A stretch of DNA of 64,000 bases from Shigella phage SP18, in sequence record GQ981382, one strand, 5' to 3'. Shown here in pieces: positions 15,825 to 37,542 of the stretch. The notes beneath the pieces were generated by a model. The model searched no databases, was not told the origin of the DNA, and worked only from the letters and a program-made list of their open reading frames with translations. A program made the translations under genes and the position numbers. Numbering within the stretch: position 1 is the first letter of the stretch; every line of letters begins with the position of its first letter.

Positions 15825-16019
15825 TCACTTGCGACGACGTTTTGGTAATGGCATTGCTTTACCTGCAGGGGTCAAAGTCACACGCAAAGCATTACCAATA
15901 CCAAGGGATGCTTTAACCAGACCTTTGGCTTTTAACTCACCAAATGCTTGACGTTGTTCAGGGTCACGAGTGTTAACCATCAGACCTTTTTCACCAGCAG
16001 CTTTGATTAATTCTAACAT
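15825..16019 (-). CDS. Hypothetical basic protein (64 aa)
   Basis: ORF track; promoter cassette directly upstream. Confidence 0.4.
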   Translation of the reverse strand: MLELIKAAGEKGLMVNTRDPEQRQAFGELKAKGLVKASLGIGNALRVTLTPAGKAMPLPKRRRK

Positions 16020-16020
16020 T

Positions 16021-16092
16021 TTATTCTCCGTTTGTTTATTTGGTAACTCAGTATGGGAACATTATACGTCTATCCCCATACTATGTACACTA
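16021..16092 (-). promoter_or_regulatory. Early-promoter/stem-loop cassette (PeSL-like)
   Basis: Repeat of the 15448-15515 element with minus-sense TATAAT in the hairpin loop and GGAGAATAAA before the ATG. Confidence 0.5.
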
Positions 16093-16320
16093 CTTTATAT
16101 AATTTTTAATATCAATCCTGCCCTGGTAGTGCTTGGCAGTTTCCTTCATCTTTTCTATGTCGATACCAACAATCACCTCACATGATTGACTTCCATGATG
16201 GCGTTTAAAATGTTCAATCGCTTCTTCTCGCGTTTGTTTGGATACGCGAGGTCTCATATGATTCATAATGGCTCCTTAGTAAAAATTCATTATGCATCAA
16301 CAGAGACAAGTTTGTACACC

Positions 16321-16350
16321 TTTAAAATAAAAAGGACCCCGAGGGGTCCT
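16321..16350 (-). terminator. Rho-independent terminator (minus sense)
   Basis: Hairpin aggacccc-gag-gggtcct followed in minus sense by a U-rich run. Confidence 0.55.
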
Positions 16351-16592
16351 TAGATTGCACTCCAAAAATTATGGAATCTTATAGTATTGATAGCCCAGTT
16401 AACAAACCTGCGAGTTTGCTTGGAAGTTGGTTTACATGTGTACTTGATATTGACCCGACGCCCAGTTTCCCGACAGACCGCTTCGAGATACCAGCGCCGA
16501 CCTTTATTGGGTCTTCCATATGATAAGAAGACCTTGATTTCCTGGTTATCGATAATAGGAATTGTGGTTGTCAAGATATACCTCTTCAACAA
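16350..16592 (-). CDS. Hypothetical basic protein (80 aa)
   Basis: ORF track; overlaps the 3' end of the nucleotidyltransferase ORF. Confidence 0.35.
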   Translation of the reverse strand: MLKRYILTTTIPIIDNQEIKVFLSYGRPNKGRRWYLEAVCRETGRRVNIKYTCKPTSKQTRRFVNWAINTIRFHNFWSAI

Positions 16593-17556
16593 ACTTGTCC
16601 CAGAACTTCATGTCCACCTTCTCAGGCATACCATTCTTAGCGGCCCAGATAGCATTAGTTTCGACTTCATCAACGATAGCTTCAAGTTCGGCCTGCACAT
16701 CTTTAAAAGCATGAAGCCCTTGTTTGATTTCAAGGATAAATGGTGCTGTACGTAAAGGATATTGGAGGTCGCCAGTCATATAGATTTCCTTCAACTGGTA
16801 TCCAGCCCGATAAGCATGGCTCAGAGCTTTCCAGTCGATACCTTCATTAGCTTCAGCCTTACGAGCGCGCTCGCCATATTCCGCATCGAGCTTATTCAGA
16901 GATTGCTTGAGCTCGATTAAAGACAAGGTGGTTTGGTACTTACGTCCAAGAACAGTATAGAACGTTTGAGGACCAGTTTTCTCGTGGTTATGGAATACCC
17001 ATTCACAAAACTCGTTTTCAGGGAGTCTGTGTTTGATATCTTCTACCTTAGTTCGACGTTGCTTAGTCGAACCGTCTTCTTGATAATCGACCCACTGTTC
17101 AGGAATCTGGTTAACGATTGCCAGTACACCACGTAGAGCGGCCAGTCGAGAACCTTTAACACCATATTTGGAAGCTTGCTTACGGACATACCCCAAATAG
17201 GCTTTCATGTTGGTTGTATAGAACCGCGAACGGTTATCCTGAATAAACTTCCATACATCTGGTAAATCGGATTTGACAACCAGGTCAGCCGGTGTGTGAA
17301 TCATGTCCAGGGCAACGGTTTCGCCATCGGCTGCCAGTTTAAAGAAATATTTCAGACTATAAAGTTCATGGTCAACATCATCTTTTGTATTTTTGGTAGC
17401 CGTGTTATTCGTGTTCAGGTTTGTATGGTTCATCGCGGTTCCGAGCAGGATATCTCGCGGATGAGGAACGAAGATTTCTTTAAAATCAACATCAGATTCC
17501 GGAGTACTTGTTCCATAAAGGTGGGAGCCAAAATATCCCTTCATAACAGTTCTCAT
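16546..17556 (-). CDS. Putative nucleotidyltransferase (Pol-beta-like fold)
   Basis: N-terminal GS-x10-DVD motif (YFGSHLYGTSTPESDVDF) and downstream acidic VALDMIH; start set at the MRTVMKGYF Met to avoid overlap. Confidence 0.55.
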   Translation of the reverse strand: MRTVMKGYFGSHLYGTSTPESDVDFKEIFVPHPRDILLGTAMNHTNLNTNNTATKNTKDDVDHELYSLKYFFKLAADGETVALDMIHTPADLVVKSDLPDVWKFIQDNRSRFYTTNMKAYLGYVRKQASKYGVKGSRLAALRGVLAIVNQIPEQWVDYQEDGSTKQRRTKVEDIKHRLPENEFCEWVFHNHEKTGPQTFYTVLGRKYQTTLSLIELKQSLNKLDAEYGERARKAEANEGIDWKALSHAYRAGYQLKEIYMTGDLQYPLRTAPFILEIKQGLHAFKDVQAELEAIVDEVETNAIWAAKNGMPEKVDMKFWDKFVEEVYLDNHNSYYR

Positions 17557-18005
17557 TTTTTGTCCTCGAAGTGGATTACAGGGCACATCTTAGATTTACG
17601 AGCTTTAATGTATTGAATAACGATGTTTTCTTTAGTTTCCTTTCCTTCACGTTTGGCTAGAATACGTTGCCATTCCTTTTCTTCTTTACGTAAATCATAC
17701 CAGGACCATAAATTCATTAGACCATACATTAAACCAAATGCTACCGCCAGAATAAGAGCCAGTGTAGCTAGTCCTAAAATAAACCCTAAACCTAAACCAA
17801 CCGGGGTACTTAATACAAAGAAATGCTCTAATACACCAGCCCCCGCGACAGTGAATCCAAAAACCACACTACCGATAAAAATGGCACAAACAAAACAGGC
17901 CCAAACCATTTTCCAAAAGTAAGCACACAATGAGTGTGGACGAGAATGGCGGTCATAAAATTTATCGTGGAAACGAGCATGCCAAGAGTTTGCATTGATA
18001 ATCAT
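17553..18005 (-). CDS. Multi-pass membrane protein (150 aa)
   Basis: Three or more hydrophobic helices; C-terminal basic tail. Confidence 0.5.
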   Translation of the reverse strand: MIINANSWHARFHDKFYDRHSRPHSLCAYFWKMVWACFVCAIFIGSVVFGFTVAGAGVLEHFFVLSTPVGLGLGFILGLATLALILAVAFGLMYGLMNLWSWYDLRKEEKEWQRILAKREGKETKENIVIQYIKARKSKMCPVIHFEDKK

Positions 18006-18015
18006 AATATTTTCC

Positions 18016-18576
18016 TTAAGAGTTCATAGTTGGGATAACCGAGTTCAGATAAGAGACTAAAACTTTTAGCTCGTCTTTAGTAAATACAACTTCACTTTCA
18101 CCGTCATGTCTTTGGACAATGGACAACAAGTCACGGCCGTTATGTTGATACACAGTCAGTTCAGTATTATAATCTAATTCCTCTTCATCGCCTTCAAACG
18201 TTTCGCTAGATCGAATCAGTGCGTCTTGACCAGGGACTTTCCATTCAACTTCTGGCTTGCATTCTTCCTGGAACAGTTTGAAAATACAATCAAAGAATTT
18301 ATCAGAATCGCTGATGCTCAGACATTTTTCATCTGTTTCAATATTAAACCCAGCGTCGTGCTTATAAATGCGAGCACATACATCGTCGGTAATATCAAAT
18401 ACACCACTAAAACTACCGTTAAGATATTCATCTTTATCCAAAACCATTAAATCATAAAGTGGTTTAATATCAGCGATAGTCAGTACGATTTTATCGTCTT
18501 CTTGACAAAGCTCAATTGCGTTATTAACTACTTCAGCGGTCAGTTCGCCAAACAATTCAGTTGTTTCAATAATCAT
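18016..18576 (-). CDS. Hypothetical acidic protein (186 aa)
   Basis: ORF track. Confidence 0.5.
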   Translation of the reverse strand: MIIETTELFGELTAEVVNNAIELCQEDDKIVLTIADIKPLYDLMVLDKDEYLNGSFSGVFDITDDVCARIYKHDAGFNIETDEKCLSISDSDKFFDCIFKLFQEECKPEVEWKVPGQDALIRSSETFEGDEEELDYNTELTVYQHNGRDLLSIVQRHDGESEVVFTKDELKVLVSYLNSVIPTMNS

Positions 18577-18586
18577 TTTCTGTTCC

Positions 18587-18877
18587 TCAACGGTTATGTT
18601 TTAAAATACTATAAAGCGCTTCTACTTGGCTTGCATCCAGGTAAATAACATCATCATCTTGCTCAATGGAAATCCCGCCAGTATTACCTTTAACAAAATT
18701 ACATTCGCACACTTCAACTGGGCGGTATACGTCACCAACTGGATGCTCAGGCTCCAGAACAATCACACCATTTTCAGAATTACCACTTGGGTCATATAAC
18801 ATTACAGTTTCCTCGCTAACCATGAAAAGAATAAACCAATTAAAACAGGCCCTACAGCCATTGTTAACCAAGCCCAA
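18587..18877 (-). CDS. Hypothetical protein (96 aa)
   Basis: ORF track. Confidence 0.45.
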   Translation of the reverse strand: MGLVNNGCRACFNWFILFMVSEETVMLYDPSGNSENGVIVLEPEHPVGDVYRPVEVCECNFVKGNTGGISIEQDDDVIYLDASQVEALYSILKHNR

Positions 18878-18893
18878 GGTTCAAGATAGTAAA

Positions 18894-19151
18894 TCATCTC
18901 ATGCTCCTGTGCCAGCAATTTCGTGGCTCACGTTTAAAAATTTTGTCGTGCATTGATTGACAACCAACACAATATATCACACCTTTAATCGCTTGTCTCC
19001 GCGCTTCAGGAATTTTTTCGTCGCAGTCAAAACAGAATTCAGCAGACTCCCTTTCAACTGCAACTTGCGCTCTCGCATGGGTGATAGCGGCTTGGACAAC
19101 CGCTTCCATCTCTAACTGTTCAGCACCATCTTTTGCAAATCCAACAGCCAT
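18894..19151 (-). CDS. Zinc-finger protein, DksA/TraR-like C4 type
   Basis: CFDC-x17-CVGC arrangement. Confidence 0.45.
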   Translation of the reverse strand: MAVGFAKDGAEQLEMEAVVQAAITHARAQVAVERESAEFCFDCDEKIPEARRQAIKGVIYCVGCQSMHDKIFKREPRNCWHRSMR

Positions 19152-19333
19152 TATTCTTTCAACTCATTCAGATACTCAACCAAGGCTGCTTTAGAGTTAG
19201 CCAAATCTCGTTTACACTGTTCTATTCCAGAATATGAATAACCTTCACAATATTCAACAGCCAGGTCATTGGATGCATTTTCAATGTGCCAGGCGAGTTT
19301 GATAATTTTTTCAATCTGTTCAGTAGTTAACAT
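19151..19333 (-). CDS. Hypothetical protein (60 aa)
   Basis: ORF track. Confidence 0.4.
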   Translation of the reverse strand: MLTTEQIEKIIKLAWHIENASNDLAVEYCEGYSYSGIEQCKRDLANSKAALVEYLNELKE

Positions 19334-37214: not shown

Positions 37215-37290
37215 TTGGTCGAGACAGTAGGGATCGAACCTACGACCTAGGACTTAGAAGGTCCTTGCTCTTCCTTCTGAGCTATGCCTC
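37215..37290 (-). tRNA. tRNA-Arg (anticodon UCU)
   Basis: Minus-sense cloverleaf CGAGGCA...CTTCTAA...GTAGGTTCGATCCCTAC...TGTCTCGACCA; anticodon loop CU-UCU-AA. Confidence 0.8.
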
Positions 37291-37295
37291 GTAAT

Positions 37296-37369
37296 TTGCG
37301 GACACACATGGATTCGAACCATGGACCAATTGATTAACAGTCAACTGCTCTACCACTGAGCTATGCATC
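37296..37369 (-). tRNA. tRNA-Asn (anticodon GUU)
   Basis: Minus-sense GGATGCATAGCTCAGTGGTAGAGC...CTGTTAA...CATGGTTCGAATCCATG; anticodon GTT. Confidence 0.75.
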
Positions 37370-37373
37370 CAAA

Positions 37374-37448
37374 TTGGTGGCCCTTGCTGGTTTCGATCCA
37401 GCTACCTATCAGTTATGAGCTGACAGCTCTCCCATTGAGCTAAAGGGC
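37374..37448 (-). tRNA. tRNA with CAU anticodon (Met or lysidine-modified Ile)
   Basis: Minus-sense GGCCCTTTAGCTCAATGGGAGAGC...CTCATAA...GCTGGATCGAAACCAGC AAGGGCC ACCA; T-loop reads AUCGAAA. Confidence 0.75.
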
Positions 37449-37542
37449 CAATTCTATTATGAAAGGCTCTTTGAGGGAAGAACCTTTGGTAATAGAGGGT
37501 ACTTATTAATAATAACACATAACTCTTAAAGCATATTACTTG

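Follow-up and report, generated by a model that had tools for sequence, protein, structure and literature searches.

Judged by its sequence, the nucleotidyltransferase encoded in this stretch of Shigella phage SP18 DNA is the ortholog of T4 NrdC.11, whose gene was catalogued long ago and is in that sense already known and ordinary; NrdC.11 proteins form a subgroup that has diverged from other Pol-beta nucleotidyltransferases of the RlaP family (PF10127). We consider it probable that the protein is an RlaP-type NrdC.11 RNA-repair enzyme and, jointly, that the small phrog_944 membrane protein encoded beside it is an independent neighbour. SP18 is a T4-like coliphage of the Gaprivervirus/Dhakavirus type; the window analysed here is the whole stretch of 64,000 nucleotides (record GQ981382), in which the genes of interest lie on the minus strand (Table 1).

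The nrdC.11 gene of SP18 and its surroundings

The SP18 gene has both features expected of an nrdC.11 ortholog: identity that is high over the full length, and a kept place in the nrdC-mobD region. The SP18 protein shares 98% of its amino acids with VR7 NrdC.11 (VR7 gp101) and 83% with T4 NrdC.11 (NP_049709, annotated 'nucleotidyltransferase'), in each case across all 336 residues, and it matches phrog_388 with E = 1.9e-132. In SP18, T4 and VR7 alike, the gene is flanked by mobD.1 upstream and by nrdC.9/.8/.6 downstream. Locally, SP18 differs from T4 at two points: (i) T4 has MobD upstream of nrdC.11, whereas SP18 has the phrog_944 membrane gene there; and (ii) nrdC.10 follows nrdC.11 in T4, whereas three small ORFs follow it in SP18.

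Table 1. Features of the SP18 gene block around nrdC.11 (positions in the window).
Feature	Position	Strand	Evidence or remark
mobD.1 / y05I ortholog, acidic, 186 aa	18016..18576	(-)	PF24449 E = 5.9e-42, PF24448 E = 9.8e-20
Small membrane protein, phrog_944, 150 aa	17553..18005	(-)	Full-length match, E = 6.8e-57
In-frame extension of nrdC.11 up to GTG (probably not translated)	17557..17586	(-)	Falls inside the membrane-protein gene; homologs begin at ATG
nrdC.11 ortholog, 336-aa Pol-beta nucleotidyltransferase, RlaP family (PF10127)	16546..17556	(-)	Pfam, phrog_388, identity to T4 and VR7
Basic 74-aa ORF, phrog_8921	16350..16574	(-)	E = 4.7e-38 over full length
Intrinsic-terminator-like hairpin	16332..16351	(-)	AAGGACCC-CUCG-GGGUCCUU, then U5AU4; ends the gene block

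The three co-directional ORFs described in an earlier note on this DNA, of 186, 150 and (as a maximal frame) 346 aa, were all recovered. The maximal frame of the nucleotidyltransferase (16546-17586) opens on a GTG. The real start is likely the ATG at 17556, because a GAGGA Shine-Dalgarno sequence lies 6 nt upstream of it and homologs are 336 aa long from this ATG. The 4-nt overlap with the membrane gene proposed earlier is indeed there (ATGA at 17556), but the same start makes the protein 336 rather than 346 aa.

The 186-aa product, correctly called acidic, has a pI of 4.14 (42 D+E versus 15 K+R); Pfam names both of its domains 'putative transcription factor', and in the VR7 record it bears the name MobD.1. 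At the other end of the block, the conserved phrog_8921 ORF, which the earlier note passed over (pI 10.7; 80 aa if read from a TTG at 16592; VR7 counterpart VR7ORF100c) overlaps the 3' end of nrdC.11, an overlap that is repeated in other genera. The strong terminator of the earlier note was also found, as a hairpin (8-bp G+C stem, tetraloop and U-run, -15 kcal/mol, z = -2.49), but it does not directly follow the nucleotidyltransferase: the phrog_8921 ORF stands between, and its stop abuts the hairpin. The nearest terminator-like site upstream of the block is at 19875-19848, so that about nine small genes share one stretch and the three genes do not form a unit of their own. A sigma-70 promoter scan returned 19 sites, against 18.1 expected from shuffled sequence, and an Rfam search over the window gave nothing but three tRNAs elsewhere.

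Relation of NrdC.11 to the RlaP family

RlaP stands for 'RNA ligase-associating Pol-beta', a family whose presumed task is to mend damaged RNA termini ahead of ligation. The Pfam profile of this family scores 41.8 bits against the SP18 NrdC.11 ortholog (gathering cut-off 23, E = 1.4e-10), in an alignment that spans only residues 8-134, which correspond to profile positions 25-142 of 249. The same domain is present in every listed NrdC.11 homolog in precomputed tables, and a 2025 preprint placed T4 NrdC.11 in cluster 5 of the PF10127 network (PMC12776372).

The active-site signature is complete. The motif YFGSHLYGTSTPESDVDF provides G10-S11, ten residues and D22-x-D24 (336-aa numbering), and these four residues are invariant in two homolog alignments of 26 and 48 sequences. 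A third carboxylate, D60/D62 with E64, lies on model strand 61-67, beside the DxD strand; among NrdC.11 homologs D60 never varies and D62 hardly does. The Pol-beta fold, the GS-x(10)-DxD signature and the downstream acidic residue that the earlier note had read from the letters are all borne out.

In the AF2 model, an NTase core is joined to a helical domain: residues 1-95 are modelled as an alpha/beta core, 99-148 and 213-335 as long helices, and 155-208 as a beta insert. This model (pLDDT 88.3) used a more diverse alignment, and a model from a shallow alignment had pLDDT below 50 at residues 1-66. The PfRlaP crystal structure (PMC12776372) has an N-terminal NTase domain followed by a C-terminal helical domain, and the predicted layout of NrdC.11 may correspond to it. 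There are differences too: only the N-terminal ~130 residues of NrdC.11 are recognisably alike, and the protein is ~70 residues longer than canonical RlaP and has a beta-sheet insert. When the NrdC.11 profile was compared with canonical RlaP by hhalign, only ~82 N-terminal columns were aligned (E = 0.015, probability 2.9%). Because in both the Pfam and the hhalign comparisons the likeness is confined to the N-terminal part, the C-terminal two thirds of NrdC.11 could have a different specificity.

A search of PDB sequences, a set from which PfRlaP is evidently absent, with the single sequence and two profiles found nothing meaningful. No match to a CD-NTase (CBASS) or a CCA-adding enzyme, two affiliations raised earlier, was obtained by sequence or by fold.

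RNA-repair neighbourhoods and the proposed role of the enzyme

What might NrdC.11 act on? Its relatives are tied to RNA ligases and RNA-repair operons, as are RlaP proteins. Among 32 environmental phage loci with NTases 37-48% identical to the NrdC.11 ortholog, an RNA-ligase association (Rnl1, or ligase plus RtcB) was found in 20; the order NTase, ATP-dependent ligase, RtcB recurred in 11 loci, and an Rnl1-type RNA ligase was present in 9. In bacteria, canonical RlaP, Hen1, Pnkp, RtcB or Ro60 was encoded nearby in 34 of the 76 loci sampled (NTases 30-51% identical). Where the bacterial neighbour is canonical RlaP, the two genes usually overlap by 4 nt. Since in bacteria the NrdC.11-like clade is thus usually paired with a canonical RlaP gene, often overlapping it, the two are probably not redundant and may have different jobs.

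Two Pseudomonas RlaPs, PfRlaP and PaRlaP, add 1-2 NMP to an RNA 3'-OH, prefer Mn2+ and act on neither DNA nor protein (PMC12776372). By analogy with these distant paralogs, from which both substrate and product are taken, 3'-OH nucleotide addition is most likely the activity of NrdC.11. Among the roles that the earlier note had left open, RlaP-type tRNA or RNA repair is the best supported, by the PF10127 score and by the RNA-repair neighbourhoods of the relatives. In this scheme, D22, D24 and D60/D62 would form a two-metal site through which 1-2 nucleotides are added, without a template, to the 3'-OH end left on a broken RNA. A typical substrate would be a tRNA that a host anticodon nuclease has cleaved and shortened in its anticodon loop. 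The phage enzymes for end healing and sealing, Pnkp (pseT) and Rnl1 (rnlA), whose genes lie in other parts of such genomes, could then join the ends into a full-length RNA. The SP18 window contains no RNA ligase or Pnkp gene; in VR7, a close relative, pseT and rnlA are found at a distance of about 86-90 kb. NrdC.11 would be a non-essential accessory enzyme, made from the early gene block and serving counter-defence or RNA maintenance; T4 can do without the segment nrdC.11-mobD.3 (PMC9825161).

Alternatively, the enzyme could act on a protein, by MntA/MNT-type AMPylation, or on a small molecule, in the manner of aminoglycoside or lincosamide NTases, as an antitoxin-like or anti-defence factor apart from RNA repair. 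Structural neighbours of the model do include KNTase/ANT(4'), LinB and MNT-HEPN components, and there are weak matches to NTP_transf_2 (E = 0.069) and MntA (E = 0.056). We regard this alternative as unlikely: both matches fall far under their family thresholds, whereas PF10127 is above its own; the bacterial RlaPs label RNA and neither DNA nor protein (PMC12776372); and relatives of the NTase are embedded in clusters with Pnkp/Hen1, RtcB, Rnl1 and Ro60.

The phrog_944 membrane protein and its linkage to nrdC.11

The gene upstream of nrdC.11 encodes a membrane protein, as the earlier note had stated; its three or more helices are less certain. A hydropathy scan of the SP18 protein gives three peaks, but 44 of 60 family members have two segments, with K/R-rich tails on both sides. 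Because most members have two segments and both tails are rich in K/R, an N-in/C-in hairpin is the favoured, predicted topology. The full-length match to phrog_944 (PHROG annotation 'membrane protein') is a family placement only. The 60 relatives sampled fall without exception into this family, which numbers 1112 clusters at 50% identity. Its members share an N-terminal motif, MxINxNSWH…P.SLCxYFW, and a basic C-terminal one, KAKKxKxCPxIEF; C27 and C141 are invariant, and the hydrophobic core between the motifs is variable, with 2-3 TM segments. Searches of Pfam, NCBIfam and PADLOC yielded nothing beyond transmembrane noise below threshold (NIPSNAP, Oleosin, ABZJ_00895), and a scan of bacterial genomes for M[IN]INxNSWH, a pattern so narrow that a miss is weak evidence of absence, found no match. 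The best explanation is that the protein is an independent, fast-evolving member of the large, phage-only phrog_944 family.

Do the two genes form a pair? Among 72 related viral NTase loci, the membrane gene is adjacent in only 14, separated by 1-5 genes in 26 and not found nearby in 32; conversely, no NTase lies near the membrane gene in 44 of 73 loci, and no membrane gene was found in any of 80 bacterial NTase loci. Individual genomes illustrate how the order is broken. In T4 the homing endonuclease mobD occupies the place of the membrane gene while nrdC.11 is kept, and the 44-61 kb stretch checked there holds no membrane-gene copy. A VR26-like phage carries MobD as an insertion between membrane gene and NTase gene, and in Aeromonas phage AS-zj these two are 72 kb apart. 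The two products have also diverged to different extents, the NTase being 83% identical to the T4 group and the membrane protein only 28%. In Klebsiella-type phages, a 184-aa gene found between membrane gene and NTase was considered as MobD.1 and rejected, since BLASTP showed no similarity. Nor are ATGA overlaps unusual, being present at 20 of the 105 same-strand junctions in positions 1-44000 of the window. Because the pair is separable and such overlaps are routine, a two-component system is not indicated. Adjacency and the ATGA overlap are best explained by a gene order inherited within the nrdC-tk hyperplastic region, together with the dense packing of T4-like early genes.

A looser, non-obligate link, in which the membrane protein localises or regulates RNA repair at the membrane or in which both proteins counter the same host system, would fit the finding that in 39 of 40 enterobacterial-type loci (NTase at least 60% identical, several genera) the phrog_944 gene precedes the NTase gene in the same orientation, at a distance of 0-1.8 kb, and in SP18 both genes share one stretch between the same terminator-like sites. 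Such a link seems to us improbable. T4-like gene order is conserved by descent anyway, the number of intervening genes ranges from 0 to 5, T4 has lost the membrane gene at this site and retained nrdC.11, and no recurrent neighbour was found for the membrane gene in loci without the NTase.

We give very little credence to a Hailong- or Panoptes-like pair, in which a nucleotide or oligonucleotide made by the NTase would gate the membrane protein for superinfection exclusion or timing, or in which the NTase alone would supply a decoy signal, such as poly-dA, that silences the Hailong of the host. In the Hailong anti-phage system (PDB 9dbh; PMC13434031), HalB (~217 aa) primes poly-dA synthesis on a tyrosine, and HalA forms a tetrameric channel whose crown domain binds DNA. 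SP18 shares with halA-halB a gene order in which the membrane protein comes first and the NTase second, stop and start overlapping, and nearly all enterobacterial T4-like loci have the phrog_944 gene upstream of the NTase. However, no sequence-level likeness of the SP18 pair to either Hailong protein was found: NTase profiles do not reach HalB, the membrane-protein profile finds no HalA chain among PDB sequences, and the likeness of the NTase to HalB (13% identity) appears to be that of the generic NTase fold, with Z near those of 3c18 (8.1) and ANT/LinB (6.6-6.7). The 150-aa membrane protein with its short tails does not have the size to hold both a channel and a crown domain, PADLOC gives no match, and the genes found around NTase relatives serve RNA repair and do not encode effectors. 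A Hailong pair would be expected to form an obligate operon, whereas in many genomes the SP18-type genes stand apart or lack their partner, as the loci and phages counted above show, and they have diverged unequally from the T4 group; the SP18 pair also lies in the early region of a lytic phage. A version in which the two genes would be a phage-borne Hailong-like guard or exclusion module, an NTase product gating a small membrane effector, or in which Hailong-type defences of the host would be disarmed by a decoy oligonucleotide from the NTase, with the separations in other phages being secondary, is if anything still less credible.

The signalling or abortive-infection module suggested by the earlier note is thus not supported, with no PADLOC match and a pairing that is lineage-specific and repeatedly broken; clear orthology to the conserved T4 nrdC.11 and no evidence of coupling are essentially the findings that the note itself had listed as speaking against it. 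An NTase beside a membrane protein resembles a signalling defence module, and recognising here nrdC.11 and an unrelated neighbour removes a false lead. What emerges on the membrane side is phrog_944, a large family of membrane proteins confined to phages, in which two cysteines are invariant. On the enzyme side, if the proposed role of NrdC.11 is true, a phage RlaP putting back the nucleotides that RloC-type anticodon nucleases cut out would complete the T4 Pnkp/Rnl1 tRNA-repair story.

The nucleotidyltransferase and its locus

What is the nucleotidyltransferase? It matches Pfam PF10127 (RlaP) at 41.8 bits (cut-off 23) and phrog_388 at E = 1.9e-132. Aligned along its whole length, it shares 83% identity with T4 NrdC.11, and it shares 98% with VR7 NrdC.11. 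The gene shares its flanks with the T4 and VR7 orthologs (mobD.1 upstream; nrdC.9, nrdC.8 and nrdC.6 downstream). Relatives occur in 1515 phage records, and a search of 5.8 billion proteins returned 4907 matches at E <= 1e-10, with PF10127 on all matches listed. The GS/DxD motif quoted in the earlier note is present, and the acidic residue that it placed further downstream is conserved: G10, S11, D22, D24 and D60 do not vary among homologs, including those with as little as 37% identity, and D62 is nearly invariant. In an AlphaFold model (alignment of 48 diverse sequences, pLDDT 88.3), residues 1–95 form a Pol-beta alpha/beta core with D60, D62 and E64 on the strand adjoining the DxD strand; the remainder is a helical domain into which a beta sheet is inserted (residues 155–208). 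Judged by homology, the enzyme is the already known T4 NrdC.11-type RlaP nucleotidyltransferase. T4 NrdC.11 is explicitly assigned to cluster 5 of the PF10127 network (PMC12776372), and the T4 segment nrdC.11–mobD.3 can be deleted (PMC9825161), as expected of an accessory gene.

The window comes from a T4-like coliphage, and positions 16000–19200 are 88–95% identical to Escherichia phages 212, VR7 and VR20 and related Gaprivervirus/Dhakavirus-type genomes. The earlier observation is real but needed corrections to a start codon, a helix count and an overlooked small ORF. The acidic protein was borne out, as was the 4-nt overlap. The length of 346 aa, however, is that of the maximal GTG ORF: the ATG at 17556, which makes the ATGA overlap, is the likely start because a GAGGA Shine-Dalgarno sequence lies 6 nt upstream and homologs are 336 aa long. 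Likewise, a terminator-like hairpin closes the block but does not directly follow the nucleotidyltransferase gene, as the small ORF lies between. This ORF starts with TTG within the final 29–47 nt of nrdC.11, ends at the terminator stem and is conserved, and its overlap with nrdC.11 is seen again across several T4-like genera.

Features of the locus, in transcription order
Feature	Position	Strand	Remarks
Acidic 186-aa protein	18016-18576	-	MobD.1/y05I ortholog; PF24449 + PF24448; pI 4.14
150-aa membrane protein	17553-18005	-	phrog_944
Nucleotidyltransferase, 336 aa	16546-17556	-	PF10127, phrog_388
Basic 74-80-aa ORF	16350-16574/16592	-	phrog_8921; pI 10.7; overlaps end of nucleotidyltransferase gene
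Terminator-like hairpin	16351-16332	-	Last element of block

T4 nrdC.10 (~325 aa) is missing from the window, where small ORFs are found instead (16090-16266 and 15825-16019; phrog_12120 and phrog_6001), an example of the plasticity of the nrdC–mobD region. RefSeq product names in this region ("thioredoxin", [quoted passage not shown]) are wrong: they were derived from nrdC.x and mobD.x as gene names and then propagated. ARAGORN and Rfam agree on only three tRNA genes in the window (Arg-TCT, Asn-GTT and Met-CAT; 37216-37449, minus strand).

The membrane protein and its junction with nrdC.11

The phrog_944 match spans the full length of the membrane protein, for which no family was found in Pfam, NCBIfam or PADLOC. 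Searched with a profile, 1.84 billion representatives gave 1112 clusters (50% identity), nearly all of 130–170 aa; no relatives turned up in 185,579 bacterial and archaeal genomes scanned with a narrow pattern. Conserved motifs mark both ends of the family, MxINxNSWH…P.SLCxYFW at the N terminus and the basic PN…YxKAKKxKxCPxIEF at the C terminus, on either side of a hydrophobic core that varies; C27 and C141 are invariant and W8-H9 nearly so. Hydropathy of the window's protein has three peaks, in line with the three or more helices first proposed, but the family favours two segments. Because 44 of 60 members have two hydrophobic segments and both tails are K/R-rich, an N-in/C-in hairpin is the more likely topology. 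The tails are then probably on the same, cytoplasmic side, and their C27, C141 and W8-H9 could together make a metal-binding or redox site.

Is this protein functionally coupled to the nucleotidyltransferase, as a signalling or abortive-infection module would require? Enterobacterial T4-like phages keep the two genes 0–1.8 kb apart, which points toward coupling but is adequately explained by general gene-order conservation in T4-like genomes. A phrog_944 gene lies upstream on the same strand in 40 of 72 nucleotidyltransferase-anchored loci, directly adjacent in 14 and separated by 1–5 genes in 26; none was found within 4 kb in the 32 more distant loci, nor in any of 80 bacterial loci. Conversely, 44 of 73 membrane-anchored loci have no nucleotidyltransferase within 5 kb, and no other recurrent neighbour was found in these. 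The genes are 72 kb apart in Aeromonas phage AS-zj, and this phage and the T4 group share 83% identity in the nucleotidyltransferase but only 28% in the membrane protein. Of 105 same-strand junctions at positions 1–44000 of the window, 20 have an ATGA overlap, and ~40% have an overlap of some kind. Coupling is thus not supported: the pair is often separate, broken or unpaired. A pair of the Hailong type (HalA membrane channel, HalB nucleotidyltransferase) is very improbable, as the membrane-protein profile does not match HalA and the genes are separable in other genomes.

In T4, the HNH homing endonuclease MobD occupies the membrane gene's position, and no phrog_944 gene was found between 44 and 61 kb of the T4 genome, the span checked. 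Tequatrovirus teqskov lacks mobD and has the adjacent pair, and in a VR26-like genome MobD (79% identical to that of T4) is inserted exactly between the two genes. Therefore, the junction is a homing site at which a break is tolerated. The window's junction (17553-17556), where MobD sits in other phages (fetched loci L006:3198-4001 and L003:1430-2209), is uninterrupted and without endonuclease. Upstream of its membrane gene, teqskov (L004:1464-2537) has two tandem MobD.1/y05I-family genes (phrog_1502), the window and T4 one; relative to teqskov, T4 MobD replaces the second as well as the membrane gene.

RNA-repair neighbourhoods of the NrdC.11 clade

Among the 72 viral loci fetched around NrdC.11 relatives, 32 have nucleotidyltransferases of 37–48% identity; 11 of these carry a PF01068 ATP-dependent ligase just downstream, followed by RtcB, and 9 an Rnl1-type RNA ligase (PF09511). 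The compact order of nucleotidyltransferase, ligase (PF01068 plus OB domain) and RtcB is seen on environmental phage contigs (L053, L060, L062-L064, L066, L067, L069-L071, L074), an apparent phage RNA-repair cassette joining 5'-phosphate-type and 3'-phosphate-type ligases. In 76 bacterial loci (nucleotidyltransferases of 30–51% identity), a canonical full-length RlaP gene (PF10127, 240 bits) lies directly downstream in 23–25, usually overlapping by 4 nt. Hen1 occurs in 8, Pnkp in 6, RtcB in 10 and Ro60 in 8, and at least one of these five in 34. Thus, the NrdC.11 clade sits within RNA-repair clusters and forms a subgroup of RlaP that has genuinely diverged: hhalign aligns it with canonical RlaP over only ~82 N-terminal columns (E = 0.015).

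The tandem pair (L196:4929-6790 and ~22 further bacterial loci, e.g., L183, L185, L204 and L230) often stands beside Pnkp/Hen1, RtcB or Ro60, and two unlike RlaP-type enzymes in tandem suggest that the two have separate tasks or combine into a heteromer. Near this locus, T4-like phages carry the NrdC.11-type gene only, without canonical RlaP.

Burroughs and Aravind chose the name RlaP for the association of the family's genes with RNA ligases (summarised in PMC7824862), and predicted that the family replaces nucleotides lost from cleaved RNAs prior to ligation. Two Pseudomonas RlaPs add 1 or 2 NMPs to RNA 3'-OH ends, prefer Mn2+, are inactive on DNA and protein, and can rescue aminoacylation of a tRNA short of one anticodon-loop nucleotide (PMC12776372, a 2025 preprint). 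No ligase gene was found within the window; the close relative VR7 has pseT (Pnkp) and rnlA (Rnl1) in other parts of its genome. Pnkp and Rnl1 are 5'-phosphate ligation enzymes and require a 3'-OH end, exactly the end that an RlaP would leave. RNA 3'-end repair is the most probable role of the NrdC.11-type nucleotidyltransferase.
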